Source: Candidatus Levyibacteriota bacterium (GTDB lineage: Bacteria; Patescibacteriota; Microgenomatia; Levybacterales; UBA12049). From it: 64,000 nucleotides of DNA. Below the pieces are notes generated by a model. It was given only the letters and a program-made list of their open reading frames with translations. It had not been told where the DNA came from and ran no database searches. The position numbers and the translations under genes were made by a program. The DNA lies in the NCBI GenBank assembly GCA_963716145.1, contig OY970292.1, positions 204,104 through 268,103 on the forward strand, read 5' to 3'. Below, piece by piece: positions 788 to 54,128 of this stretch (position 1 is the first letter of the stretch; every line of letters starts with the position of its first letter).

Positions 788-2182
788 TTAATGGCCTGTT
801 GTATCCCAGTCCTGACTTACGCTTTTAAATTTGCTTATTTTTTCTTTAAATAATTTTTGGATTTTCTCAAGCTGTTCCTGTGTTTTGGCTTCAAACCGTA
901 GAACTAGTGTGGGAGTATTGGATGAAGCACGCACCAGACCCCATCCGCCTTCCAGATAAACTCTCGCTCCGTTAATATCAACGACATTGTATCCTTCGTC
1001 CTTAAATTCTTTAACCAAGGCTTCTACAACGTTGTATTTGTCCTCGTCTGTTGTTTTTACCTGAATCGTCGGTGTTGAAACATAGTAGGGGGTTGAAGCG
1101 ATAATTTCTGAAAGCGGTTTGTCCTCTGTTGATAGATACTCCAGAATTTTAAGGGCCGCAAAAAATCCATCATCAAAACCATAAAAATCCTCAACAAAGA
1201 ATATGTGTCCGCTCATCTCCCCTGCCAGCGCTGCTTTTTCCTCTGCCAATTTTGCTTTAATATGTGAATGTCCCGTTTTCCACATAATAGGTATTCCTCC
1301 ATGCGCTTTAATATCCTCAGGCAGTGCTTCCGAAACCTTTACATCAAAGATTATTTTAGCTCCGGGATTTTTAGAAAGAACAAGGCGAGAAAGCAAGATT
1401 ATATATCTATCAGGCCAAATCGTGTTTCCTTTTTCATCAACAAGTCCCAACCGGTCAGCATCTCCATCAAATGCAAATCCAAGGTCACAACTATTCATAG
1501 TAGTTTGCTTACCCGTATCTTCCATCATGGCTGTCCCATCAGGGTTTGCTGTGTAGTTGGGGTATGTGGGATCTACATTGGTAAAGTGCTCCACTACTTC
1601 ACACCCTGCTTTCCTGAGTAGGTCTGGTGCAAAAAGGCCAGCCGTTCCATTGCCTGTGTTGACGAGAATTTTAAATTTTTTGCTGATTTTTGCCCTGGAA
1701 ATAAGGTCATCCTCATATGCCTCTTTAATTTGCGCAGTTTTGACAGTGCCTTTTCCGTCCACAAACTCCTCTTTTTCAATCAAGGAATAGACTTCATTTA
1801 TGCCTTCTGTTAAGAGAGTGGATGAATAATCGGTTCCCAGCTTAACACCATTCCACCCAGCGGGATTGTGGCTTGCCGTTACCATCATAAGACCTTTGGT
1901 TTTGAGATAATACTGTGCCCAATAGGACATAGGGGTCGTGGCTGTTCCTATATCTATTACATTTATGCCTGATTCAGTTAATCCCTTAATAGCACTGTGA
2001 TGAAAACTCTCAGAAGTCTCCCGGGCATCAAATCCGACCACGCAGTCGCTTACTCCAGCCTTGATTAGATATGTAGCAAATCCTCGGGCAATAAAGTAGA
2101 TTGATTTTTCGTTAAGTTCGTCTTCTGATTCGCGGCCCTTGAGGTCATACTCACGGAACATTGTTCTCTTAAGAATCGGCAT
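788..2182 (-). CDS. phosphomannomutase/phosphoglucomutase (alpha-D-phosphohexomutase family)
   Basis: 464 aa with the TASHNPAGWNG active-site serine loop and the GDADR metal-binding motif. Confidence 0.85.
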   Translation of the reverse strand: MPILKRTMFREYDLKGRESEDELNEKSIYFIARGFATYLIKAGVSDCVVGFDARETSESFHHSAIKGLTESGINVIDIGTATTPMSYWAQYYLKTKGLMMVTASHNPAGWNGVKLGTDYSSTLLTEGINEVYSLIEKEEFVDGKGTVKTAQIKEAYEDDLISRAKISKKFKILVNTGNGTAGLFAPDLLRKAGCEVVEHFTNVDPTYPNYTANPDGTAMMEDTGKQTTMNSCDLGFAFDGDADRLGLVDEKGNTIWPDRYIILLSRLVLSKNPGAKIIFDVKVSEALPEDIKAHGGIPIMWKTGHSHIKAKLAEEKAALAGEMSGHIFFVEDFYGFDDGFFAALKILEYLSTEDKPLSEIIASTPYYVSTPTIQVKTTDEDKYNVVEALVKEFKDEGYNVVDINGARVYLEGGWGLVRASSNTPTLVLRFEAKTQEQLEKIQKLFKEKISKFKSVSQDWDTTGH

Positions 2183-2192
2183 GATATCTATC

Positions 2193-2885
2193 TTAAATAT
2201 CTAAAAGGAGGAAGTCAATGGTTTGGGTGAGTGTCATGGATAAATTTCCTGTTTTCATAGCTTTTTCTATCTCAAATAGTTTACTATACAAGTTTTTTAA
2301 TTCATCAATTTCAAAAGAATCAGCTTGATTTTGTAACTTGGATTTTTGCCAGGGCGCTATTCTCTTTAGTTCCTCAATTTGATCATTGGTTTGCTCAATT
2401 AGGCCCAGTAGTATCCTGATTTGGCGTACAATCATAAAAAAAACCATTTCAGGCTCGGCAGTCTGGATAGCGTTGTGAAAAAGCTTTATCAAGCTTTTTC
2501 CATTACCCGGTTTTATATTTTCAAGAAAGACAAAGAGAGTTTGAGGGAAGTTAAATAATTTAATTATGGGGTTTTTAAAAGTATTTAAATTTGTTTTTGT
2601 AAGCTCGCTTCCTTCCCAGATAAAAATATTATTGTCAGATATATTTTTTTTAAGATAATCCGTGATTTGATCAAGTTCTTTGCTTTTTTTTCTTTTCCCA
2701 AATAACCCTTCAATAAAAAAGTTTTTCTGCTCAAAAAACAATTCCCCGCCCTCAAAAATTTGCACCAAATCCGTGATATCCACGTTTTTACCGTCAATAA
2801 TTAGTTGCTCAGGATCTTTTTGTTTAATATCGAGAAAATATTTTCGGGATGAGGCTGTGTCAGTGCCGTGAATTATAGTTATCAT
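2193..2885 (-). CDS. holA: DNA polymerase III delta subunit-like (HolA-like, short form)
   Basis: 230 aa. The N-terminus MITIIHGTD..SRKYFLDI and a C-terminal helical region (LFHNAIQTAEPEMVFFMIVRQIRILLGL) resemble clamp-loader delta. Assignment from memory only. Confidence 0.4.
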   Translation of the reverse strand: MITIIHGTDTASSRKYFLDIKQKDPEQLIIDGKNVDITDLVQIFEGGELFFEQKNFFIEGLFGKRKKSKELDQITDYLKKNISDNNIFIWEGSELTKTNLNTFKNPIIKLFNFPQTLFVFLENIKPGNGKSLIKLFHNAIQTAEPEMVFFMIVRQIRILLGLIEQTNDQIEELKRIAPWQKSKLQNQADSFEIDELKNLYSKLFEIEKAMKTGNLSMTLTQTIDFLLLDI

Positions 2886-2979
2886 AAAATTTTTAATTTG
2901 AAATTTTTAATTTTCATTGAAATAAAAATGTTTAAAAATTTAAATCATTAAATATTCACTTCAAATTTTAAATTGAAAA

Positions 2980-3396
2980 TTATTTATTAGTTTTGTCTTT
3001 GTACTCTTTATACAAGCTGTTTGCCACTTGATGAAGGTTACGACTGCGTGTACGGTGGGGTAGGAGAGCACCTGAAAAATTTTTAGGAATGTGCAATAGT
3101 TCATGGATAAGGACCTTCATCTGTGCATCGTGATCCAGCAGGTCATAATACTTTGAAAGAACTTCGATTACATAAGCTGGCTCAACCCCCAATGCCCGCT
3201 GAAAAATTTTTGGGAATGCCCAAGTTCTGGCGTACGCACGGGTTTTGGAACCTGTTGTTCTGAAGCAATGGATTTTTGATATATCAATGTAGGGAAGGTC
3301 TATTTTCCCCAAAATATTCTTCAAGTCTTTTTCTACATCTTTTGCGTCATCCCATTCCATAGTAAATAAGGGTATCACGATCAGCCGGTATATCAC
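2980..3396 (-). CDS. putative zinc metallopeptidase (HExxH; SprT/DUF45-like)
   Basis: 138 aa containing VLIHELLHI (HExxH) near the C-terminus. Confidence 0.35.
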   Translation of the reverse strand: MIYRLIVIPLFTMEWDDAKDVEKDLKNILGKIDLPYIDISKIHCFRTTGSKTRAYARTWAFPKIFQRALGVEPAYVIEVLSKYYDLLDHDAQMKVLIHELLHIPKNFSGALLPHRTRSRNLHQVANSLYKEYKDKTNK

Positions 3397-3491
3397 AAGC
3401 TAATAGGTTTTATGCTAAATAATATTTTATATCTTCAGCAGCCATTTGAAAACTGCTTTCAATGGTTTTGATGGTGTTATTAAGCTACTTT

Positions 3492-4598
3492 TTACATCCT
3501 GTTCGGAAAAGTCGCGAATTGGGGTTTGTGCATTCCCCATTTCATTTGAAGCAGAAGTTTCAGCAGCCAAAACCGTATTGGCAGGCTTTGGTTTTCCTTT
3601 AACTTTTGGGCTATTTTTCCAACTTTTATATTGTTCACTAAAGGCTTTCCGCTTGCTCCTAAGAAAGAAAATTGTTGAAAAGGACTGCTTGAGCCCTGCA
3701 GTAAAAAGGGGGTAATTGCGACGATATTGGGATCGCTCCACACAGCATTCAGTGCAGAGAGATAATAGCTAGCTGCTTGCTTATCAGAAATTTTCTCAGT
3801 AGACCAGCCTGTTTCAGTCAAGAAAACAGGCAGATTTTTCGGACTCATGGTACTTATAAGAGCTCTTTCGTACTGAAAACTATTAATGCAGGTCGTACAA
3901 TTCATTCCAGGAGGTGTTGAAAAAGCGGGGTTGGGATAAGAATGGCTGCTTAGGCCATCAACCTGGTTAAAAATTCCGGGAACTGCAGCATTCATTTGTC
4001 TCATAAAATTATACTCGTTCATGTATAAATTTGGTTGATTTGGTGCTCCGTTATCAAGTCCTGCGGATATTATGAAGAAGTCAGGGGATTTTGATTTAAA
4101 TACTGTCACAGCATAAGTTAGAATTTGAGCGTATTCCTGAGGATTAGTGCTTCCACCCCATTCGTTTCCCCTATTTACCTCATTGAAGATGATAACATAT
4201 TTGTTTTTTACCGGCCAATTTAGTGAATCAAGAAAATTGGCAAAATCCACGACATCTGTGTCTTGCGGCTTTCTCCAAACTTTTGTATTGAAATAATCGC
4301 CTTCCGTTGCCAAGCGTATTATGGGAATAACGTGGTATTTTTTCGCCGCATCCATAAAAGCTTGCCATTTCTCAACGTCCCTGTCTCCAGCTTGAATAGC
4401 AATAGTAGCATAGCCCCAGTCGCCATTAGTTGAATTTACTAACGTCGCCGCTTCCTTTAACTCATGATCAGAGAGGATGTGTATGCCTATTTTGTTGTTA
4501 GGAACACTTAACGGATTTTCCACTGCATGCGCAGCAGGTGGTGTTATAGAATAAATCCCAAACAGAGCGAACAAGCTTAAAAATAGAATTTGTTTCAT
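3492..4598 (-). CDS. secreted glycoside hydrolase, clan GH-A-like (GH5/cellulase-like TIM barrel)
   Basis: 368 aa with an N-terminal signal peptide (MKQILFLSLFALFGIYS..AAHA). The IIFNEVN (NE acid/base) and LTETGWST (nucleophile Glu) motifs are typical of clan GH-A. Confidence 0.55.
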   Translation of the reverse strand: MKQILFLSLFALFGIYSITPPAAHAVENPLSVPNNKIGIHILSDHELKEAATLVNSTNGDWGYATIAIQAGDRDVEKWQAFMDAAKKYHVIPIIRLATEGDYFNTKVWRKPQDTDVVDFANFLDSLNWPVKNKYVIIFNEVNRGNEWGGSTNPQEYAQILTYAVTVFKSKSPDFFIISAGLDNGAPNQPNLYMNEYNFMRQMNAAVPGIFNQVDGLSSHSYPNPAFSTPPGMNCTTCINSFQYERALISTMSPKNLPVFLTETGWSTEKISDKQAASYYLSALNAVWSDPNIVAITPFLLQGSSSPFQQFSFLGASGKPLVNNIKVGKIAQKLKENQSLPIRFWLLKLLLQMKWGMHKPQFATFPNRM

Positions 4599-4650
4599 CT
4601 AATTCCTAATTATATCACTATAATGCCAAATTTTTTGCTATCATAGAGAG

Positions 4651-5244
4651 ATGCACATATTTCTTTTCAATTTCTCCTGGATGACTCTTAACGTTGTCTT
4701 GGCCTTAATAGCGGTTATATTGGGTTATTTATTTCTTCTCACAAAAAACAAAATATTGAAGTATATTTATGCAATTTTTTGGTTACTTTTTGTACCAAAT
4801 ACAATTTACCTTGCGACTGATATAATTAATCTTATTTGGCAATGGGGGAGAATCAATGGTGAAGAAAGGATTTTATTTGCGTTTCAGTTGGTAGCGCTTC
4901 AGATTATATGTGTTATAACTTTTGTTTTAGCTCTTTATCCCTTTGAGAAGTTTATATCTGGTGCCAAATGGGCAAAAAAGAAGATAAACGCAGATTTAAT
5001 GATTATTCTGCTTAATTTTATCATCGGATTTGGTATTACCTTGGGGCGAGTTGAGAGGATAAATTCCTGGGATGCAGTCGTTGCTCCTCAGAGAGTTATT
5101 CGGGCAAGCATGCATATACTTCTTTCCCCTAATCTTTTGCTGTTGACAGCCCTTTTTTCCTTATTTTCCAGCTTATTGTATTTTGTGTTCCGTAAACCGA
5201 TCCTAAAGTATTTTAATACTTACTTATCCCGAGTTGCTGCTTGA
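4651..5244 (+). CDS. multi-pass membrane protein (DUF1361-like)
   Basis: 197 aa with 5-6 predicted TM helices; no catalytic motif recognised. Confidence 0.4.
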   Translation: MHIFLFNFSWMTLNVVLALIAVILGYLFLLTKNKILKYIYAIFWLLFVPNTIYLATDIINLIWQWGRINGEERILFAFQLVALQIICVITFVLALYPFEKFISGAKWAKKKINADLMIILLNFIIGFGITLGRVERINSWDAVVAPQRVIRASMHILLSPNLLLLTALFSLFSSLLYFVFRKPILKYFNTYLSRVAA

Positions 5245-5587
5245 TTGTTATCCAGATTTTTTGCCAGCCTGATGCTGATTGATAACTTTTATATGCTTTT
5301 TTTCTATTATCATCGTCACTTCCTTTTATTGGGGGATCTGCCCAACAAGACAATATTAGCCATTCTCCCTTTTCGTTTTTTTTGGCAACTATAGTAACTA
5401 GCGATTTGTCAATGCGTTTTTTGTATATGGTTGTTCCTGTTTCACGTCCGGGAGAAGACTCATCGGGGTTGTTAAAAGCATATCCAGCGATATCCTGCGT
5501 AAATCCACGTTCCTGCAGTCTTTGTAGGGCATGATTGGTCCAGATCGCTCCTTTATAATAAACTTGCGGCATACAGTAATAATACAA
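5213..5587 (-). CDS. DUF4258-like small protein (RelE/ParE-superfamily toxin-like N-terminus)
   Basis: 124 aa. AIWTNHALQRLQERGF resembles the DUF4258 H-A-x-x-R-x-x-x-R-G signature. The likely start is an internal Met (MPQVYY). Confidence 0.3.
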   Translation of the reverse strand: MYYYCMPQVYYKGAIWTNHALQRLQERGFTQDIAGYAFNNPDESSPGRETGTTIYKKRIDKSLVTIVAKKNEKGEWLILSCWADPPIKGSDDDNRKKAYKSYQSASGWQKIWITIKQQLGISKY

Positions 5588-5649
5588 GACTTGGGATTTA
5601 TTGACAAATACAGTTTATTGTTCTTAAATAAGATGAGGAGAATACTTCC

Positions 5650-6618
5650 ATGCAAACTAAAAAAAGGGCAAAACCTGTAAAATTTGGATCTACCTCAAAA
5701 GCAGCCAAGGTAAAAGAGGAAATAAAAAAAGAAGCTGAAAAAGTAATTTCAGCCAATAAAAAAGAGCAAGAGGAAGCTGAGAAAAAAGCCAGTTCTGTCC
5801 ACCCTTCAGGTTCAGAGCAGGCAAGCACATCGCAAGATAAGCCTTCGGAAACATCTCCGGATCAAGACGTTCCTAAAAATAAAGAAGAGGAAGGATATTT
5901 TTCAGCAGATATTGAGACAGTGGATATAATTGAGAGCGTTGAGCTTCAAAATGATGACAGCTCTACGCCTCAAGAATCAGACAAAAAGACAAGAGATGAA
6001 AATACCGATTCACCTTCAGAAAAAGCAGTAGAAGAGGAGCAGGTTCAAGTTTCGGATGAAAATCCGGCTGTTGAGGAAAGTAAAGAATCTCTTGTTGATA
6101 AAGATGGAGCGTTTTTTAGCACCCCGCCTGATGGTTACGCTAAGAAAAAAAGTATGCTACCCTACTTTTTTATGGTAATGTTTGCTACTTTTATATTGGG
6201 GTTGGTTTTCTTTGGAGGGATATATTATGCAATTTCCAATAAGGATAAAATTTCGTCCTTAGTCCCAAAACAGATGTCCGAACCCACAAAAGCAGCCCCA
6301 ACCGAAGTGCCCACACCCACGCCAGTTGATTTGGCAAAGTACACTGTAAAAGTACTGAATGGAACATCGGTCTCAGGAGTGGCGGCCAAGCTGAAGACCC
6401 AGTTAACTGATGCTGGCTTCAAAGTGGGAACAATTGGAAATGCTGATAAGGATACATATCCTAAAACTGAGATTGTGGCTAACAAAAAAGTAGAAAAGGC
6501 ATATTTGGATAAATTGAAAGAGATTTTGAAAAAGTCATACACTCTCGGTTCCAGCTCTGTGCTGGCATCAGGGGATGCAGATGTTGTGATCACAATTGGC
6601 AGCGCCAGCGCCAAATAG
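5650..6618 (+). CDS. LytR_C (LytR/CpsA/Psr C-terminal) domain membrane protein with acidic low-complexity N-terminus
   Basis: 322 aa: an acidic, Ser/Glu/Lys-rich N-terminal region, one TM helix, then YTVKVLNGTSVSGVAAKL...GFKVGTIGNAD, which is typical of LytR_C. Confidence 0.6.
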   Translation: MQTKKRAKPVKFGSTSKAAKVKEEIKKEAEKVISANKKEQEEAEKKASSVHPSGSEQASTSQDKPSETSPDQDVPKNKEEEGYFSADIETVDIIESVELQNDDSSTPQESDKKTRDENTDSPSEKAVEEEQVQVSDENPAVEESKESLVDKDGAFFSTPPDGYAKKKSMLPYFFMVMFATFILGLVFFGGIYYAISNKDKISSLVPKQMSEPTKAAPTEVPTPTPVDLAKYTVKVLNGTSVSGVAAKLKTQLTDAGFKVGTIGNADKDTYPKTEIVANKKVEKAYLDKLKEILKKSYTLGSSSVLASGDADVVITIGSASAK

Positions 6619-7075: not shown

Positions 7076-7152
7076 ATACAGTCAGGCACTGCCAACTCGA
7101 AATAATTCCTCTAACTATTTACGAAAACACACATTTATGATATAGTCTAGGC

Positions 7153-7515
7153 ATGGTAGAGCAAAATAGAGATCCAGAGAGAGAGAGAGTAGTTGATTTT
7201 GCAGGCGAACGGATGAGGAGAGTACCGATGCGCCGTGTTACAGATGATGAGTTGGACGCAAGAATGAAAGCTGTGAAAAAAGCGGCTGATGAGGAAGGAG
7301 CCAAACTTTCATCAGAAGATCGAGCAGCAGTAGACCGTTTGCATGGAACACCTGATTCATCACTAACTGAGCCCCCTCTTAATCCTCGCACAAGAGATAT
7401 ATTGCTTGACTTACTGGCACAAAAAGCTTCGGCGGAAGTTCCAGGTGCAGTCGTAAAACCTTTTCGGAAAAAGCCACAACCCGAAAGAGCACCAAAGGAT
7501 AGAAAGCCTAAATAA
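7153..7515 (+). CDS. hypothetical charged/disordered protein (locally GC-rich ORF)
   Basis: 120 aa, Arg/Glu/Asp/Pro-rich. It contains a (GA)n run near 7181-7195 and has clearly higher GC than its surroundings. Confidence 0.3.
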   Translation: MVEQNRDPERERVVDFAGERMRRVPMRRVTDDELDARMKAVKKAADEEGAKLSSEDRAAVDRLHGTPDSSLTEPPLNPRTRDILLDLLAQKASAEVPGAVVKPFRKKPQPERAPKDRKPK

Positions 7516-28793: not shown

Positions 28794-28991
28794 TTAAAGA
28801 GCTGGAAATACCGGCAAGCTAAAATCAGGAATCGCAAAGCCTTTTGGAATAATACTTGTTTTTTCGTCCTCAACTTTCGTAATTTCTTCATTCATAATAT
28901 AGCCTTTATTTAATTCCTGTTTTTTAACTTCTTTTTCCTTTAGAATCATCAGCCAGTTGTTTGATTGTTTGTACATAAGTGCTTCCTCCAT
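28794..28991 (-). CDS. small hypothetical protein
   Basis: 65-aa ORF in a 346-bp gap; no motif recognised. Confidence 0.15.
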   Translation of the reverse strand: MEEALMYKQSNNWLMILKEKEVKKQELNKGYIMNEEITKVEDEKTSIIPKGFAIPDFSLPVFPAL

Positions 28992-43386: not shown

Positions 43387-45114
43387 TTACTCCTTTGTTG
43401 TCCGTTGATTTATTCCAGACAAGATAGGCCCATGTGATATCGGATATCCAACAAGCGAGGAAGGAACAGTGGGAGGAGTCTTGTCGGATGAAGTTGACGG
43501 TTTAGGTATTGGAGTGGGAACAAGTTTTTTGGTTGGAGTAGGGGTAGGCTTGTTAGCTAAAGTTGGACTGGGAATGCTGGTTGGAGCTATCGCTATTGTT
43601 GGTGTGGGTACTGATACAGTAGGTGAGGGTGTTGCTATAGCTGGGGTCGGTGTTGTATCAGCAGATGCGTTAAAAGTTACTTTTACTGTAGCTTGAGAAG
43701 CAGATACCCCCATTGTTTCAATTTTTAACTTACTTACAGGATCGTAGAACGCTTTACCTACCGCAAGTGGAGCATCTGTAAAACTAGGTATCCCAAGAGG
43801 ATTATTTGAAACTGAACCTGGAGTAGTATCGATGATCTCTGAGGAGGCCTGAAAGATATTTGAAGGTCTTCGGATTGTAACCCCTGTTGTTACAGGGTTT
43901 GTAGGTGCAAATGTATCGAAAACACCAAATGGCTGACGGTATTCTAGATAGTAATTTTTTCCACTGCCTGTGGATATCTTTAATCCCTGTATTCCTGTTG
44001 AAGGTTTTTCAAGTGGTTGTATCGCATATATGCCATTTGTAGATATGGTTTGTACCTGACTTGAGGAAAGAAAATTGGCTTCAAGTTTATGAATAATATT
44101 CAGATGGTAGCTACCTCTACCCATTACGTCAAAAGGATCATTTCTTCCAAGATCGTCTCCGGTACATGAGTTGCTCATGGCAACCCGATTACCCGCGTTG
44201 TCAGTGCAAGAAGCATTACCCGAGTGATATGCCCCAAAGCTATGGGCTAGCTCATGCATAGCATAGGCTTTCCACCTACCAGGCTTAGATTCGCCTCCAT
44301 TGAGGGATATGACTGCAATGCGTGATAGATCTGAAGCACCCCCGCTATGGCAGCCCTCCCTATACGGCCAGCTAATAACAATTTTTTCATAGCTATCGAT
44401 ATTTATGCCTTCCGCACGGACTTTCGCAAGCACTTTGTTATTATCATAAAAACTGCAAGGAATATCAGTCATAGTGTAATATCCAAAAACATCGCCTTGA
44501 ACGCTTATTTTGCCATAGGAATTTTCCTCAAAATATGCTTTGAGGGAGGTCGGATCTGTGAAAGAATCCCGGATGATCTGATTTTTATCAAACGGCTGAG
44601 TTTGTAAATTTTGAAAATTCACTAAAATAACTGCTAGCTTGACTACTGTGCTTGCGCCAAGGACTTTGTTTTTTGCCTGAATAATCTGAATATCGTTTCC
44701 TCCAAGCCGCTCGATTATTTGTTCCTTTTGAGATAGAGTTAGAGACTCGTGAACACTTGCGGGGGCGACTTTAAAAACCTGAGGATTCAATTCAGATCCT
44801 TTAACTCTTATTCGGCTGCCCGGGGCAATACCGGTTGGAGAGCCTTTTTCAAAACTAAGCTCTACTTTTTTTCCATCATCTGTCTTTAGGAAAGTTTGCA
44901 TTGTTGCTTTGCCACTCTCAAGATCGGGATCATTATGCAACATTTCGATTACTCCTTCTTTTGTTTGTTCTTGCGGTTCTGCCGCCTTTGATCTGAGGGA
45001 AGTTTGCTGATTTTGATAATAAACGGCAACAAAAAGAGCAAGCAGGCTAAGTACTGCTCCTGCCACAAATAGATTTCGTTTTGCGCTTTTTCCGTTTTTA
45101 AAATAATCTCTCAT
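43387..45114 (-). CDS. secreted/membrane-anchored zinc metalloprotease (HExxH) with Pro/Thr-rich C-terminal tail
   Basis: 575 aa with an N-terminal TM; the zincin motif is AMHELAHSFGAYHSGN; the C-terminus carries PTPTP repeats. Confidence 0.55.
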   Translation of the reverse strand: MRDYFKNGKSAKRNLFVAGAVLSLLALFVAVYYQNQQTSLRSKAAEPQEQTKEGVIEMLHNDPDLESGKATMQTFLKTDDGKKVELSFEKGSPTGIAPGSRIRVKGSELNPQVFKVAPASVHESLTLSQKEQIIERLGGNDIQIIQAKNKVLGASTVVKLAVILVNFQNLQTQPFDKNQIIRDSFTDPTSLKAYFEENSYGKISVQGDVFGYYTMTDIPCSFYDNNKVLAKVRAEGINIDSYEKIVISWPYREGCHSGGASDLSRIAVISLNGGESKPGRWKAYAMHELAHSFGAYHSGNASCTDNAGNRVAMSNSCTGDDLGRNDPFDVMGRGSYHLNIIHKLEANFLSSSQVQTISTNGIYAIQPLEKPSTGIQGLKISTGSGKNYYLEYRQPFGVFDTFAPTNPVTTGVTIRRPSNIFQASSEIIDTTPGSVSNNPLGIPSFTDAPLAVGKAFYDPVSKLKIETMGVSASQATVKVTFNASADTTPTPAIATPSPTVSVPTPTIAIAPTSIPSPTLANKPTPTPTKKLVPTPIPKPSTSSDKTPPTVPSSLVGYPISHGPILSGINQRTTKE

Positions 45115-47105: not shown

Positions 47106-48443
47106 ATGAAGCAAAAAATTGTAATTATCGGCGCAGGAATGGCAGGCTGTTTTATGGCACTTTGTCTTGCGAAAAAAGGGTTTGATGTGGAAATTTATGA
47201 GGAACGTGAGGATATTCGGAAAAAACCAATTGACGCAGGCAGGTCCTTTAATCTAACTCTATACTATCGTGGAATTGTGGCAATGAAAAAAGTAGATGTT
47301 TGGGATGATGTAAGGAAATATGCTGTTATTGCACAAGGAAATGTTGCGCACTACGCAAATAATAAAACAATGTTTTCTCCTTTTGATGTTCATGGTAATG
47401 AAGTTCTGTATACAATCCATAGGAATCAGCTAAATGGTGTATTAATTGATGAAGTTGAGAAGCTATCAAACGTTAAGTTTTCTTTTAACACGCACTGCAT
47501 AGAAATTAAAAGTCATGAAAAATCAATAACTCTTGAAAAGAATGGAAAAAAGATTCAAGCGCAGGCCCATGTTGTGATCGGAGCGGACGGAGCTAATTCT
47601 ATTGTCAGGTCTGAAATTCAAAAAAATACTGACGGAGAACTGAAAATTGAATACGAAGATTGGGGATATAAAGAAGTTCGCGTTGCAGAGGAAATAGCTG
47701 AAAAACTAAACCTTAAACAATATGCAACCCACACATGGCCGCGCCCGGATTCGCTTCTTATCGCTTTTCCGAATCCTGATAAGTCTTTCACATTGATGTT
47801 CAATTTGCCGCTTGAGGGGAAAAATGGCTTTTCCTCTTTAAATACAGATGCAATGGTAAAAGAATACATTGTTACTTTTTTTCCTGACCTTATGCCTTTA
47901 CTTGCGGAGATAGTTCATACATTTCTTGATAAGCCAACCGGTAAGTTTGTAACTGTGCATACGCAGCCCTGGTCCTACAAAGATTTCATGGTTTTGATTG
48001 GTGACAGCGCGCATGGAGTTATTCCTTTTTACGGCCAGGGAGCGTGTGCCGCTTTTGATGATTGCCTCAGGCTTTCAAGCTTGATTGAAGAGCATGGAAA
48101 TAATTGGGAAAAAATATTTAGCACTTACCAATCAGAGAGAAAAGTTAATACAGATATCTTGGCAGAGCTTTCCAAGGAAAACTTCGTTGAACTACGCGAC
48201 AAAAGCAGATCTGCTTATTTTATCTTAAAAGACAAGGCGGATACATTTCTTAACCGCTTGTTTCCCAAGCTCTGGCTTCCTCCCCTTTATGTCTTAATAG
48301 CACATGGCAGTCTTCCTTACTCGCTAGCGCTCGAAAAATACAACAAACAACAAAAAATTGCCAGATGGAGCGGTTTAAATCTGCTGCTTTCAGTATTATC
48401 AATTCCGCTAAAAAAACCTGGGGACCTTGGATTTGTAAGATAA
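47106..48443 (+). CDS. FAD-dependent aromatic-ring monooxygenase (kynurenine 3-monooxygenase/UbiH-like)
   Basis: 445 aa; N-terminal Rossmann IVIIGAGMAGCFMALCLAKKG…E; the DGANS motif (GADGANSIVR); a C-terminal hydrophobic tail. Confidence 0.75.
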   Translation: MKQKIVIIGAGMAGCFMALCLAKKGFDVEIYEEREDIRKKPIDAGRSFNLTLYYRGIVAMKKVDVWDDVRKYAVIAQGNVAHYANNKTMFSPFDVHGNEVLYTIHRNQLNGVLIDEVEKLSNVKFSFNTHCIEIKSHEKSITLEKNGKKIQAQAHVVIGADGANSIVRSEIQKNTDGELKIEYEDWGYKEVRVAEEIAEKLNLKQYATHTWPRPDSLLIAFPNPDKSFTLMFNLPLEGKNGFSSLNTDAMVKEYIVTFFPDLMPLLAEIVHTFLDKPTGKFVTVHTQPWSYKDFMVLIGDSAHGVIPFYGQGACAAFDDCLRLSSLIEEHGNNWEKIFSTYQSERKVNTDILAELSKENFVELRDKSRSAYFILKDKADTFLNRLFPKLWLPPLYVLIAHGSLPYSLALEKYNKQQKIARWSGLNLLLSVLSIPLKKPGDLGFVR

Positions 48444-48950
48444 GTATTTACTGCCAAATTTTTTCGCTAGAATTTTTTCTTCAATCTTAGCTGATTTATA
48501 AAAATAAATCAGCAGCGGAATTCTTAGCACAACTAACCAGCTCCCGATAGCTAGAGCAAATCCAAAATAGATTAGCAAAAAGCCAATGTAAATAGGATTT
48601 CTGGTAAGTTGGAATGGACCGGTTGTAATTAAAGTATCCTGCTTTGCGGAATGCTCAGCCGGTATTCCCCAAGAATTGTTCATGGTAAATCTTGCCCAAA
48701 GCGCGAGAATAGTTCCCGAAATATACATTACAATTCCTGCCGAAACCAGAAGTAAGTCCCATAGGCTTTTCGGAAGTGGAAAATATACAGCCTGAAGAAT
48801 TTGAAGTGCTAAAATTACTGCCTCAACAAGGTTTGTTTTAAGCATTTGCAGATTTATCCGGTTTCTGAAATATCTAATTTCAGTATATATCCAAAAAATC
48901 TTGATTAAAATTATTCCCAGAGTTAATAATATGATTAGCTGTGTGTTCAT
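48408..48950 (-). CDS. ICMT/PEMT-family integral-membrane carboxyl methyltransferase
   Basis: 180 aa, 4-5 TM; C-terminal TTGPFQLTRNPIYIGFLLIYFGFAL matches the isoprenylcysteine carboxyl methyltransferase family SAM-binding region. Confidence 0.65.
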   Translation of the reverse strand: MNTQLIILLTLGIILIKIFWIYTEIRYFRNRINLQMLKTNLVEAVILALQILQAVYFPLPKSLWDLLLVSAGIVMYISGTILALWARFTMNNSWGIPAEHSAKQDTLITTGPFQLTRNPIYIGFLLIYFGFALAIGSWLVVLRIPLLIYFYKSAKIEEKILAKKFGSKYLSYKSKVPRFF

Positions 48951-50188
48951 TTGAGTGCCCCAATCTTACCCAAAGTCTTGAACAGTGTATTTCTGTCTTG
49001 ATTTTTATTCATGGTGAAGACGTATTTATATAATCTTCTCTTATTATATCTTTGATCAAATGAGGCTATAGCTTCAAACAATTTTTTATTCAGTCGCTTT
49101 TTTTTAGATTGATCCAGACTGTACTCAATTGTTTTTTGTAATTCAAATTCTCTTTTTTCTTTTTTCAATATTTTCAGGTTTGCTTCGCCCTGGAGATTAT
49201 AATTTAATTTATAGTCATAATACATATTCCTGACAGCTTTGAGATCAAGCTTATCAAAAGTTTTTGCCTGATAGAGAGCATTGGCGCACACAAGCTCGAT
49301 CATTGTTTGCAAACATTTATAGCACTTTGAACAATTATATTTTCCTTTGATATTTTGTGAACAAACGCGTAGGTATCTGAGAGCAAGATCTGATTTTGAG
49401 ACGACATTTAGTATTTTTCCCAATCTGTTGTATTCTGTCCCATCATGGATAAATTCTGTTTTTTCTGTAGACCATAATTTATCAAGATCAGGATGAGTCC
49501 CGTAGGGGAATACCTCATCTTTTCTCAAACCTGCCGGAATAAATATATTTTTAAATTCCTGTCCTAGAAATAATCCAACTGCTGCCAGTGCACCTCCGTG
49601 AGCAAAGTCCCAAATCAAATACTTCTCAATTATTTCACCGGTATTTGTCTCTACAAATACAGCTTTAATCTTTTCTTCTTTCGCAATTTTTTCAACTACT
49701 TGACGAGTCTGGGAAAATAAGTTTTTGTTTGTTAGAGGAATATCAAATCCATGAACAAGAATAAAACTTTTGATTTTATCCTGTTTAGTTTTGTGCTTAA
49801 GGTAGGTATAGAATGAGTCAACACCTGCCGAAAAAAAGCTAGCTGTTTCAAGCTTTGTGTTTTTAGCAGTAGCGGGAGCAATCTCAGATACTTGAATTTT
49901 TACTTTTTTTAATCCAATATTCCAACTTTCAATCAAATCCATTATTTTTTCAGCATTTTCCAGCAGCTTTTTGGATACTGCACCTTCAATACATATGTCT
50001 TCTCCGGTCTTCATGCATGGAAGAAGAATCGCTGTCAGAAAAGGGGAGTAGTCAGCAGAAATAGACGGCTGGTTTTTCAGATCAGTCGAAAAATACATCG
50101 ACTCAGCCTTGTTATTTTTGAATATAATATTAGCTGATAAGGTAATAATTGGTCCTTTTTTTGACAAAGAAATTTTATTGATATTCAT
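48947..50188 (-). CDS. PP-loop ATP-pyrophosphatase-superfamily protein (QueC/LarE/TtcA-like) with C-terminal Cys cluster and Lys-rich tail
   Basis: 413 aa; the PP-loop-like FFSAGVDSFYT is at about residue 110; a Cys cluster CSQNIKGKYNCSKCYKC; start/stop overlaps with both flanking genes (ATGA). Confidence 0.45.
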   Translation of the reverse strand: MNINKISLSKKGPIITLSANIIFKNNKAESMYFSTDLKNQPSISADYSPFLTAILLPCMKTGEDICIEGAVSKKLLENAEKIMDLIESWNIGLKKVKIQVSEIAPATAKNTKLETASFFSAGVDSFYTYLKHKTKQDKIKSFILVHGFDIPLTNKNLFSQTRQVVEKIAKEEKIKAVFVETNTGEIIEKYLIWDFAHGGALAAVGLFLGQEFKNIFIPAGLRKDEVFPYGTHPDLDKLWSTEKTEFIHDGTEYNRLGKILNVVSKSDLALRYLRVCSQNIKGKYNCSKCYKCLQTMIELVCANALYQAKTFDKLDLKAVRNMYYDYKLNYNLQGEANLKILKKEKREFELQKTIEYSLDQSKKKRLNKKLFEAIASFDQRYNKRRLYKYVFTMNKNQDRNTLFKTLGKIGALK

Positions 50189-50190
50189 AT

Positions 50191-50742
50191 TTAAGCTTCA
50201 ATTCTTCTTCTACCTACTGTTTCTGTTTGAGCTCCAATACGATCCTTGTGCAAAAGTGAGAGCGCCATATCCACACTGGGTCGTGTAGTAATTCCGAGGG
50301 CTTTTTTATACTTTTGTACAAAACCACTTGCACAAAGATCACCATACTCTCCAAAAGAAACTAATTGCGCTTCTTGATCAACTATAAACTCACCACGTGT
50401 GAGTTCATTAAACTTGCCATGAGTTATTTCATCATCTTCATGAAATAGAACAAACCTGTTCCCCAAAATATTTCCCCATCTTTTTATTCTTTGCACCTCA
50501 TCTTTTATCAATGAATTAGGTATCAAATCTTCATCATCCAAAACTCTTCTTGAAACTTCTGGACTTAGCGCTGTTAAATATATTAGGATTGCATCATCTT
50601 GTTCTGCAATTTGTCTTACTCTTTCTTCCCATCTTGATCTTAAATCTAATTGTGTAGGACTTAACTCAGAGGAATCTGTAAAGTGTTCCCTTGCATCAAA
50701 GTCAGGGTGAACCAATACGTTAACACTGGTTATTTTTCTCAT
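50191..50742 (-). CDS. hypothetical protein, first gene of the PP-loop/ICMT cassette
   Basis: 183 aa, acidic; no motif recognised. Confidence 0.4.
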   Translation of the reverse strand: MRKITSVNVLVHPDFDAREHFTDSSELSPTQLDLRSRWEERVRQIAEQDDAILIYLTALSPEVSRRVLDDEDLIPNSLIKDEVQRIKRWGNILGNRFVLFHEDDEITHGKFNELTRGEFIVDQEAQLVSFGEYGDLCASGFVQKYKKALGITTRPSVDMALSLLHKDRIGAQTETVGRRRIEA

Positions 50743-50793
50743 ATTATAAGTATAGCAAAAAAGAGGTTAATAATCAACTATAGGACTAAATTG

Positions 50794-50867
50794 TACGCCC
50801 AGAGGGATTCGAACCCCCGACCATGTCGTTAGAACCGACGTGCTCTATCCAGCTGAGCTATGGGCGC
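50794..50867 (-). tRNA. tRNA-Arg (anticodon UCU)
   Basis: Manual fold: acceptor GCGCCCA/UGGGCGU, D-arm GCUC-AGCUGGAUA-GAGC, anticodon loop GUUCUAA, T-arm GGGGG-UUCGAAU-CCCUC. Confidence 0.7.
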
Positions 50868-52690: not shown

Positions 52691-52762
52691 GCGGGTGTAG
52701 TTCAATGGTAGAACACAACTTTTCCAAAGTTGATACGAGGGTCCGATTCCCTTCACCCGCTC
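52691..52762 (+). tRNA. tRNA-Gly (anticodon UCC)
   Basis: Manual fold: acceptor GCGGGUG/CACCCGC, D-arm GUUC-AAUGGUA-GAAC, anticodon stem-loop CAACU-UUUCCAA-AGUUG, T-arm, discriminator U. Confidence 0.8.
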
Positions 52763-53263: not shown

Positions 53264-53812
53264 ATGAATGCAGCGCTAATTGCTAGTATTTTAGGGACAA
53301 TAATTTCAATTGTCGGGTTTTCTAGACTGGCGATACGAAATTATGTATTTGGTAGTGGTAAAACCCTAAGCGAACTCGCAGCGAAAGATAATAAAACCCT
53401 AAGAAACCATGGAATTATTTTATGGGTCTGTGCTTCTCTTTTTACATTTAGCGTCTTCCAATTAATAGTACCTAATCTGGAAGCGGGTTTTTGGCTTGGA
53501 ATTGCTTGGATAATTGGTATTTCTTGCGAGTTATTACTTCCATTTATACCCGCCAGTTCTGGATTGACAAAAAGAATTCATAACTTTTTGGCTTTTTCTA
53601 TGGTATCTGGTATGGCTCTTGTCACTTTCTTATTCTCTATATACCTAAATGGTTTATATGCAATCGGTGAGATAATCATATTTATCTTAATGTTTATCGT
53701 AGGGATTACTGCTTTAAAATTGAGAAAACACTTTATCTACTTTCAATTACCTTATATCTATCTTTCCAACCTAAGTGTTATCGTAGCTGTTTTGGGTGTT
53801 TTAAACACCTAA
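53264..53812 (+). CDS. hypothetical polytopic membrane protein
   Basis: 182 aa, 5-6 TM helices. Confidence 0.35.
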   Translation: MNAALIASILGTIISIVGFSRLAIRNYVFGSGKTLSELAAKDNKTLRNHGIILWVCASLFTFSVFQLIVPNLEAGFWLGIAWIIGISCELLLPFIPASSGLTKRIHNFLAFSMVSGMALVTFLFSIYLNGLYAIGEIIIFILMFIVGITALKLRKHFIYFQLPYIYLSNLSVIVAVLGVLNT

Positions 53813-53868: not shown

Positions 53869-53951
53869 GCCGCGGTGGTGGAATGGTATACACGGGGGCC
53901 TTAAGAGCCTCTGTCAGCAATGATATGAGAGTTCGACTCTCTCCCGCGGCA
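53869..53951 (+). tRNA. tRNA-Leu (anticodon UAA), long variable arm
   Basis: 83 nt; acceptor GCCGCGG/CCGCGGC, anticodon stem-loop GGGGC-CUUAAGA-GCCUC, long variable arm, T-arm GAGAG-UUCGACU-CUCUC. Confidence 0.75.
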
Positions 53952-54053
53952 CAAGTCTCGCTTTGGCGAGACAACACGGAACTTAGAACAGAAAACAAAA
54001 GTAAATCAGGTTCTTGGTTCAGAATTTTTAGTTCAAGGTTTTGCAAAGCAGAA

Positions 54054-54126
54054 CGGGGAGTGGCTCAGTTGGTAGAGCGGGCGGTTTGGGACCGTCAGGT
54101 CGGAGGTTCGAGTCCTCTCTCCCCGA
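54054..54126 (+). tRNA. tRNA-Pro (anticodon UGG)
   Basis: Acceptor CGGGGAG/CUCCCCG, D-arm GCUC-AGUUGGUA-GAGC, anticodon stem-loop GGCGG-UUUGGGA-CCGUC, T-arm GGAGG-UUCGAGU-CCUCU. Confidence 0.8.
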
Positions 54127-54128
54127 CA

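Follow-up and report, generated by a model that had tools for sequence, protein, structure and literature searches.

A large, unnamed family of predicted QueC/QatC-like PP-loop enzymes is genomically tied to polysaccharide pyruvyl transferases and, in a Levybacteria clade, paired with a membrane methyltransferase

Introduction

The 64,000-nt stretch of Candidatus Levyibacteriota DNA analysed here (from contig OY970292.1; termed the window) carries three neighbouring genes, gene 1, gene 2 and gene 3, all on the minus strand. A preliminary description, made from the sequence alone, had read them as a single translationally coupled cassette on an accessory island, modifying perhaps a peptide, a tRNA or a lipid. 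We find that gene 2, which encodes a protein of the PP-loop ATP-pyrophosphatase type, belongs to a large and unnamed family for which the polysaccharide pyruvyl transferase is a clear and previously unreported genomic partner. In the window the functional unit is gene 2 with gene 3, a membrane methyltransferase gene; the two show translational coupling and, in a subclade of Levybacteria, have stayed together with a convergent flavin monooxygenase gene. Gene 1 is a variable passenger.

Our overall reading, to which we assign a probability of about one half, is that gene 2 activates a carboxylate at the expense of ATP, its substrate being an envelope glycan or lipid, and that it has been re-partnered here with a membrane methyltransferase. 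In what follows, loci of relatives fetched for comparison carry L-numbers (L001 and so on) and the window locus is termed WIN.

Results

Gene 2 is a predicted PP-loop enzyme of an undescribed family

Gene 2 (48947–50188, minus strand) encodes 413 residues. The features that had first drawn attention to it are all present: the PP-loop motif FFSAGVDSFYT (residues 118–128; 49805–49837, minus strand), which is a variant of SGGxDS; a four-cysteine cluster, C276-x9-C286-x2-C289-x2-C292 (49313–49363, minus strand), which by analogy with QueC and QatC is a probable zinc site; and a basic tail, residues 340–413, with an isoelectric point (pI) of 10.2, that of the whole protein being 9.5. Both motifs are invariant in an alignment of 27 diverse family members (identity down to 40%), in the sense that F118, F119, G122, V123, D124, S125, F126 and all four cysteines do not vary and that position 120, the first residue of SAGVDS (120–125), is S or T. 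N182, P228, W239 and K258 are invariant also.

At the N-terminus M1 is invariant and I3 nearly so, and this conservation supports the 413-residue start. The public gene calls for the same DNA (L087) place gene 2 at 725–1876, starting from Met31 and giving 383 residues, and gene 3 at 1978–2415, starting from an internal Met and giving 145 residues; the family alignments support the longer forms of both proteins over these public starts.

Gene 2 is no chance reading frame: the protein collection holds 436 homologues, all of them unnamed and none with a Pfam domain. Searches of gene 2 against Pfam, NCBIfam, PADLOC and PHROGs came back empty or with chance-level matches, and neither the single sequence nor a family profile gave a real match among PDB sequences. 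Families of tRNA modification in Pfam and NCBIfam gave no match even at E = 1, and Pfam showed no RNA-binding domain in gene 2. The family is undescribed, every source labelling it hypothetical, in line with the earlier remark that the gene combination corresponded to no described pathway.

The AlphaFold model, built on the family alignment, has a mean predicted local distance difference test score (pLDDT) of 92.5 and a predicted template modelling score (pTM) of 0.91. It divides the protein into an N-terminal alpha/beta domain (1–110), a QueC/QatC-like core (∼111–300) in which the PP-loop comes after a strand at 114–118, and a basic C-terminal helical extension (301–413). A Foldseek search of the PDB with this model returned a single significant match, QatC (9y01_B; E 7.6e-7, probability 1.0, 397 columns), at a template modelling score (TM) of 0.43. 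The further matches are all PP-loop enzymes: ArtA, LarE, GMP synthase, Cap9, MnmA, PH1257 and PF0828. The model thus shows an architecture predicted for the PP-loop ATP-pyrophosphatase superfamily, in which the core is of the QueC/QatC type with PP-loop, Rossmann-like sheet and four-Cys knuckle. This agrees with what the preliminary description had proposed from the motifs, and gene 2 very probably belongs to a new, QueC/QatC-like family of adenylating PP-loop enzymes.

QatC is a component of the QatABCD anti-phage system (PDB 9y01; PMC13279940, PMC13376578, PMC13639016). It has a QueC core with SGGxDS and a four-Cys zinc site (C334, C354, C357 and C360), to which are added an alpha/beta domain at the N-terminus and a basic helical extension at the C-terminus (PMC13279940). 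Gene 2 shares this plan of N-terminal extension, four-Cys core and basic C-terminal extension, and in both proteins the substrate-loop residues, placed by eye for gene 2, seem to be unlike the Tyr/Asp pair with which QueC binds 7-deazaguanine. The two nevertheless differ in that gene 2 has no PADLOC, Pfam or PDB-sequence match, and in that the TM is only as given above. Gene 2 also lacks neighbours corresponding to QatA (a KAP NTPase), QatB or QatD (TatD) and has no MGTS-tailed partner, and the genomic context of its family is glycan biosynthesis rather than defence islands.

The likeness to QueC (PF06508) is of a similar kind. The PP-loop stands at the N-terminus of the core in both (FFSAGVDS in gene 2, VFSGGQDS in QueC); the cysteine pattern resembles that of Escherichia coli QueC, C188-x8-C197-x2-C200-x2-C203, at a similar distance from the PP-loop; and ATP-dependent activation of a carboxylate, as in QueC, would be expected of gene 2 by analogy. 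However, gene 2 matches neither PF06508 nor the NCBIfam QueC model even at E = 1, has ∼180 extra residues in its N- and C-terminal domains, and has no queD, queE or queF neighbours.

An hhalign comparison of gene 2 with E. coli QueC aligned only the 13 residues of the PP-loop, at VFSGGQDS, with a probability of 1.7%, which is not significant. By eye the two sequences correspond at four places, namely the PP-loop, an xTN that follows strand 3, a G-x-x-P-D that follows strand 4 and the Cys knuckle; since hhalign gives no significant support beyond the PP-loop itself, we treat these correspondences as inference. In this by-eye alignment the gene 2 motif PYGTHPD (P228, G230, H232, P233 and D236 conserved) stands opposite SGYPDC of QueC. 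In Bacillus subtilis QueC it is the pair Y129/D131 that binds 7-carboxy-7-deazaguanine, and the gene 2 loop, as placed by eye, looks different from the corresponding loop of QueC and Cap9, as does that of QatC, so that a 7-deazaguanine substrate seems unlikely.

Weak tblastn matches to the gene 2 core (∼25% identity, E 3e-6 to 8e-4) were also seen on small Priestia plasmids: at 1179–1907 of the 2633-bp Priestia megaterium plasmid NZ_CP130479.1, where the gene is called a hypothetical protein, and similarly on NZ_CP118546.1 and NZ_CP109861.1. The plasmid genes may represent a different PP-loop family, one of them on a tiny plasmid.

The gene 2 family keeps company with pyruvyl transferases

A species-level scan, taking one genome per species, confirmed the gene 2 family at no fewer than 552 loci. 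They are spread over Patescibacteria, Actinomycetota, Planctomycetota, Cyanobacteriota, Campylobacterota, Myxococcota, Acidobacteriota and Alphaproteobacteria. Neighbourhoods were studied in the best 80 of these at least 552 loci, with open reading frames (ORFs) called by a simple longest-ORF heuristic, under which starts and small genes may be wrong, and then clustered. A quick neighbour-joining tree of the family was made without support values.

Pfam domains were sought in 72 same-strand immediate neighbours, the Levybacteria clade being excluded from this set. By far the commonest neighbour family was polysaccharide pyruvyl transferase, PF04230, found in 26 of the 72. With a local hidden Markov model (HMM), a PF04230-type gene was found within 5 kb of the gene 2 homologue at 38 of the 80 loci and adjacent to it at 27, and this adjacency is scattered over many deep branches of the gene 2 tree. 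Individual PF04230 neighbours were verified, with E-values down to 3e-39. The one neighbour that was scanned against NCBIfam, in L016, matches both the CsaB and the WcaK models but falls under both equivalog cut-offs (121 bits against 213 for CsaB, 107 against 399 for WcaK).

Further neighbours of gene 2 homologues are glycosyltransferases of the GT4 and GT2 families, NAD-dependent sugar epimerases, DegT, AsnB, polysaccharide flippases, PMT_2-like proteins and GH5; AsnB-type proteins occur as separate neighbours in 3 of the 72 cases. The pairing can also be read from RefSeq annotation. On plasmid p4 of Azospirillum brasilense a ‘polysaccharide pyruvyl transferase family protein’ (WP_137142849.1) stands with a gene 2 homologue (WP_247896056.1) as an isolated pair; in Gloeothece verrucosa PCC 7822 such a pair (WP_013334578.1 and WP_013334579.1) follows three glycosyltransferase genes; and in Gemmobacter aquarius the pair adjoins ATP-grasp, GNAT and GDP-mannose pathway genes.

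These neighbourhoods show a genomic link of the gene 2 family to pyruvyl transferases and to glycan genes. In the literature we found no paper naming both a pyruvyl transferase and a PP-loop enzyme, and a recent review of the QueC family is silent on glycan contexts. The peptide or tRNA target that had been suggested for the cassette does not fit these family-wide neighbours, which are pyruvyl transferases, glycosyltransferases and sugar-nucleotide enzymes rather than genes connected with peptides or tRNA.

Two other arrangements were noticed among these loci. Tandem paralogues of the gene 2 family occur in L057, L018, L020, L058, L066 and L075; in L057, from the cyanobacterium Okeania sp. SIO2C9, three full copies (1767–5892) and a fragment (7081–7452) lie within 6 kb. 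In Patescibacteria, fusion proteins of ∼1100 residues stand beside the gene 2 homologue in L020 (208–3726), L023 (1661–4963) and L037 (1819–4989); those of L020 and L023 were scanned, and in both a GT4 glycosyltransferase is joined to a DUF2206 membrane domain.

Gene 2 is coupled to gene 3 in a clade of Levybacteria

Gene 3 (48408–48950, minus strand) encodes an integral-membrane S-adenosylmethionine-dependent methyltransferase of 180 residues from the PEMT/ICMT superfamily, as first described. It matches PF04191 (PEMT) with 52.7 bits against a cut-off of 25 (E 6.6e-14), and ICMT with 23.6 bits, just below the cut-off of 24 (E 7e-5). Four hydrophobic stretches (residues 1–25, 41–59, 63–86 and 118–151) give it the multi-pass topology of the superfamily, and it has the C-terminal motifs RxPxYxG and EExxL, in the form of RNPIYIG at residue 117 and EEKIL at 157. 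By its sequence it is a bona fide member. It fits none of the subfamilies ICMT, PEMT, LmtA and MddA at NCBIfam cut-offs, scoring 40 bits for LmtA (cut-off 325), 38 for isoprenylcysteine methyltransferase (160) and 29 for MddA (270); since it is far below every equivalog cut-off, neither subfamily nor substrate is assignable. PADLOC gave no match for it.

A 4-nt overlap between genes had been claimed for each junction of the cassette. Reading of the sequence bears this out between gene 2 and gene 3, where the overlap is ATGA; between gene 1 and gene 2 there is instead a 2-nt gap, TAA-AT-ATG.

Gene 3 stands beside gene 2 at 7 of the 80 loci, which with L085, L089 and the window makes 10 genomes. 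In the eight loci that were mapped (WIN, L001, L002 and L004–L008) it lies directly downstream, with a gap of −4 to +39 nt. The gene 2 proteins of the genomes so paired are 53–68% identical to that of the window, and on the neighbour-joining tree they form one derived, monophyletic Levybacteria clade. Linkage is lost in the examined relatives with identity of 51% or less (L086, L009). In the other 72 loci, local HMMs detected no remote relatives of the PEMT-like gene, the monooxygenase or gene 1. A metagenome scan with gene 3 yielded three loci only, one of them the same block and two with generic PEMT-like genes lacking gene 2. We found no description of a PEMT/ICMT-superfamily enzyme coupled to a PP-loop enzyme.

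At all 10 loci with gene 2 and gene 3, the latter is followed by a convergent gene for a class A flavin monooxygenase. In the window this gene (47106–48443, plus strand) encodes a VioC/KMO/UbiH-like protein of 445 residues (PF01494, 1.4e-18), which in NCBIfam scores best with VioC (178 bits; cut-off 760). Its 3′ end overlaps that of gene 3 by 36 nt (48408–48443). The 3′-end overlap is similar in L001 and L007, and there is none in L002, L004 or L005.

The block of gene 2, gene 3 and monooxygenase is kept although both outer flanks have been replaced in L002, L004–L006 and L008. This survival, together with the kept junction of −4 to +39 nt, argues for a real coupling of gene 2 and gene 3.

Gene 1 is an exchangeable passenger

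Gene 1 (50191–50742, minus strand) encodes 183 residues. It is mildly acidic (pI 5.3) and has no recognized motif, as had been noted; Pfam, NCBIfam, PADLOC and PHROGs gave no match. The gene itself is real. Word-indexed searches found only itself and a three-sequence profile found six proteins, while an exhaustive phmmer search found 66 homologous cluster representatives of ∼180 residues sharing the motifs VHPDY, W38, LGxRF and YGEYxxxCV. It therefore represents a small unnamed family.

The AlphaFold model (pLDDT 92.5) is a Rossmann-like alpha/beta fold. The protein begins MRKITSVNV, residues 2–11 forming a strand. No significant match was found in a fold search of the PDB and BFVD; the best TM, 0.43, is to a putative isochorismatase (3kl2) and is weak, with E 0.15. 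Conserved H12, E132 and C137 (D14 belongs to the VHPDY consensus) bear a loose likeness to the Asp-Lys-Cys triad of isochorismatases.

Besides the window, gene 1 is found upstream of gene 2 in L001, L007, L092 and, probably, L094; of the 80 gene 2 loci, only 2 have it. The slot between gene 2 and a tRNA-Arg(TCT) gene, where gene 1 sits in the window, varies between relatives. It holds a Methyltransf_24 gene alone in L085, such a gene with gene 1 in L001, the same with an unrelated 189-residue ORF in L003 and another gene in L005; in L004 and L006 no co-directional gene is present and a divergent dehydrogenase gene lies upstream.

Relatives of gene 1 also occur where gene 2 does not. In L083 (2836–5549) and L093 (294–2750) they lie behind a gene for an OLD-like AAA_15/AAA_21 (TOPRIM) ATPase, and an HTH_17 gene is there too. 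In L081 (5001–7664) a relative stands first in an operon of four genes that also encodes a pP_pnuc_1 nuclease and an NTP_transf_5 protein, and this operon adjoins an MmeI-like restriction enzyme and a serine recombinase. In L095 it stands alone among housekeeping genes. Given these gene 2-free relatives and the variable contents of the slot, gene 1 is an exchangeable passenger and not a component of the cassette, so that the three-gene unit of the preliminary description does not hold. Its family may form part of a defence or toxin module that has yet to be described.

A role for gene 1 as an analogue of QatB was considered and rejected on account of its fold, its N-terminus and the missing co-conservation with gene 2.

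The locus lies in a syntenic core region

The tRNA gene that had been reported beside the cassette was found by ARAGORN and Rfam to be tRNA-Arg(TCT), at 50793–50867 on the minus strand, where it borders the variable slot upstream of gene 2; the Rfam search of the window found tRNAs only. The gene lies between an AI-2E transporter gene and the slot in the window and likewise in L003 (3488–3562), L007 (4278–4352) and L085 (5040–5114). Relative to gene 2, its orientation in L003 and L007 is opposite to that in the window and L085, which suggests a small local inversion or recombination.

Nearby, tRNA-Gly(TCC) (52691–52762), tRNA-Leu(TAA) (53869–53952) and tRNA-Pro(TGG) (54054–54127) form a cluster that is kept in L003, L007 and L085. 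Such a conserved tRNA cluster marks a syntenic core region rather than an island. The block and its surroundings are moreover syntenic across the Levybacteria subclade, and the G+C content in 400-nt windows, 0.30–0.39 over the three genes and 0.32–0.46 in the flanks, shows no clear composition break. These observations do not support the accessory island once proposed for this position.

In the window, the neighbours of gene 2 are the PEMT-type enzyme, the flavin monooxygenase, the AI-2E transporter and methyltransferases. Two window ORFs are without Pfam match, one of 575 residues (43387–45114) and one of 182 residues (53264–53812) that is hydrophobic and membrane-protein-like. The ORF at 28794–28991, earlier put forward as a candidate precursor peptide, is 20 kb from the cassette in an unrelated intergenic stretch.

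Discussion

The overall reading, set at about even odds, can be spelled out as follows. With ATP, gene 2 would adenylate a substrate oxygen, in all likelihood that of a carboxylate, by analogy with QueC, Cap9, asparagine synthetase-type enzymes and ArtA. A nitrogen nucleophile would then displace AMP, giving an amide or an amide-linked product. The substrate is most likely a carboxylated envelope glycan or a lipid-linked precursor; it is the recurrent pyruvyl transferase partner, usually within glycosyltransferase loci, that makes a carboxylated envelope glycan the likely class, and an obvious candidate would be the pyruvate-ketal carboxylate that a pyruvyl transferase sets on a sugar. In the lineage of the window, a PEMT/ICMT-type membrane methyltransferase would have replaced the pyruvyl transferase as neighbour. 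The methyl group from gene 3 would go onto this same membrane-bound substrate or onto a group close by on it, and in the Levybacteria clade a hydroxyl may come from the flavin monooxygenase.

For this proposed role, the nearest functional parallel lies in surface-polysaccharide clusters. The N-acetyl-sugar amidotransferases WbuX, PseA and LfnA (TIGR03573) and AsnB-like, uronamide-forming enzymes such as WbpS are PP-loop ATP-dependent enzymes that convert a sugar carbonyl or carboxyl oxygen to a nitrogen function. Their glycan context, in loci for O-antigen and flagellin glycans, is like that of the gene 2 family. They differ from it in having no detectable homology (NCBIfam is empty at E = 1), in their accessory domains and in the pyruvyl transferase partner of the gene 2 family.

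Several observations weigh against the overall reading. Approximately half of the gene 2-family loci are without glycan genes within 5 kb, and some lie among housekeeping genes. No pyruvyl transferase was found by tblastn in the 64-kb window. Outside the Levybacteria clade gene 2 is without a PEMT-like companion, so that the pair in the window may act on a substrate other than the ancestral one of the family. The earlier description had looked to co-conservation in relatives as a test of the grouping; gene 1 is not co-conserved with gene 2, and neither is gene 3 outside that one clade, within which the conservation of gene 2 with gene 3 could partly be the inherited synteny of close relatives. 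Methylation of a carboxylate in the manner of ICMT would compete with its adenylation, unless different groups are concerned. Scans for promoters and terminators gave counts no higher than expected from shuffled sequence, and are uninformative.

A more specific form of the proposal, which we put forward only tentatively, is that the gene 2 family and the pyruvyl transferase make up an undescribed, phylum-spanning module of two enzymes that would first set a pyruvate-ketal carboxylate on envelope glycans and then, at the cost of ATP, turn it into an amide, a substituent linked through an amide, or even a nitrile. In Levybacteria the module would be rewired to the methyltransferase and monooxygenase, for a new modification of something bound to lipid or glycan in these CPR bacteria.

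Among the alternatives, the one that survives best, although we think it unlikely, is a small-molecule or lipid tailoring module with no link to glycans, in which a membrane-associated aromatic or lipidic carboxylic acid would be hydroxylated by the flavin monooxygenase and methylated by gene 3, with gene 2 serving as an amide or nitrile synthetase like QueC or ArtA. The presence of gene 2, gene 3 and the VioC/UbiH-like monooxygenase together in 10 genomes, often with riboflavin kinase next, would suit such a module, as would the lack of adjacent glycan genes in the window; QueC and ArtA, which is among the fold matches of gene 2, are moreover ATP-dependent nitrile synthetases. Yet the monooxygenase gene is convergent rather than co-directional, no scaffold-forming biosynthetic gene is among the annotated neighbours (∼43.4–53.8 kb), and elsewhere the family is bound to pyruvyl transferases and glycosyltransferases, the Levybacteria members and the glycan-linked members having the same catalytic residues.

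Somewhat less probable again is that gene 2 and gene 3 share no pathway. Their adjacency would then be inherited synteny, gene 3 being a general membrane-lipid methyltransferase and gene 2 acting alone or with distant partners. The pairing is indeed confined to one monophyletic clade, AI-2E transporter, methyltransferase, flavokinase and EamA genes are also syntenic in several of these genomes, and many members of the gene 2 family stand alone. Against this, the two genes have kept either the ATGA overlap or a gap no wider than 39 nt, and the block outlives the replacement of both its flanks in the five loci noted above.

We consider a role of gene 2 in tRNA or nucleoside modification improbable. 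It would make gene 2 an enzyme like QueC, TilS, TtcA or MnmA whose Lys/Arg-rich C-terminal helices bind RNA, with gene 3 incidental. Many PP-loop enzymes do act on tRNA, MnmA and QueC-family proteins are among the fold matches of gene 2, its tail is basic and a tRNA gene is nearby. That tRNA gene, however, is part of the conserved tRNA cluster and is inverted in sister genomes; the family neighbours are glycan enzymes rather than que or tRNA genes; the tRNA-modification families and RNA-binding domains gave no match, as described above; and the Y/D loop of QueC is, by eye, replaced in gene 2.

Least probable is a protein conjugation system like QatBC or Cap9, possibly for defence, in which gene 2 would join a small molecule to the N-terminus of a partner and gene 1, in the role of QatB, would dock on its basic C-terminal helices: QatC is the best structural match, covering 397 columns of the 413-residue model with N- and C-terminal regions laid out alike, its basic C-terminal helical extension binds an acidic patch of QatB, and gene 1 is acidic, lies immediately upstream and has relatives in defence islands, but gene 1 is missing from nearly all gene 2 loci and is alpha/beta with a structured N-terminal strand where QatB is all-alpha with a disordered MG[TG]S tail, the pyruvyl transferase partners (which begin MKILISHVYS) are likewise without an N-terminal glycine tail, no QatA or QatD neighbours and no PADLOC match are seen, and the family is too widespread and too glycan-linked for a defence system.

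The practical gain for the window is an annotation corrected to a two-gene pair with a passenger gene. The most useful outcome is the family-level link of gene 2 with the pyruvyl transferase. Unexpected chemistry has lately come to light in QueC-type PP-loop enzymes, for example protein deazaguanylation in cyclic-oligonucleotide-based anti-phage signalling systems (CBASS), and the gene 2 family makes up a third, much larger and unnamed QueC/QatC-like branch, present in hundreds of species from bacteria of the candidate phyla radiation (CPR) to Azospirillum and cyanobacteria. As its carriers include the culturable A. brasilense, Gloeothece PCC 7822 and Gemmobacter aquarius, a genetic test is possible. 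Pyruvylated glycans matter in S-layer anchoring, biofilms and host interaction, and if the proposed role of gene 2 is true, the family would bring about a new modification of such cell-surface glycans.

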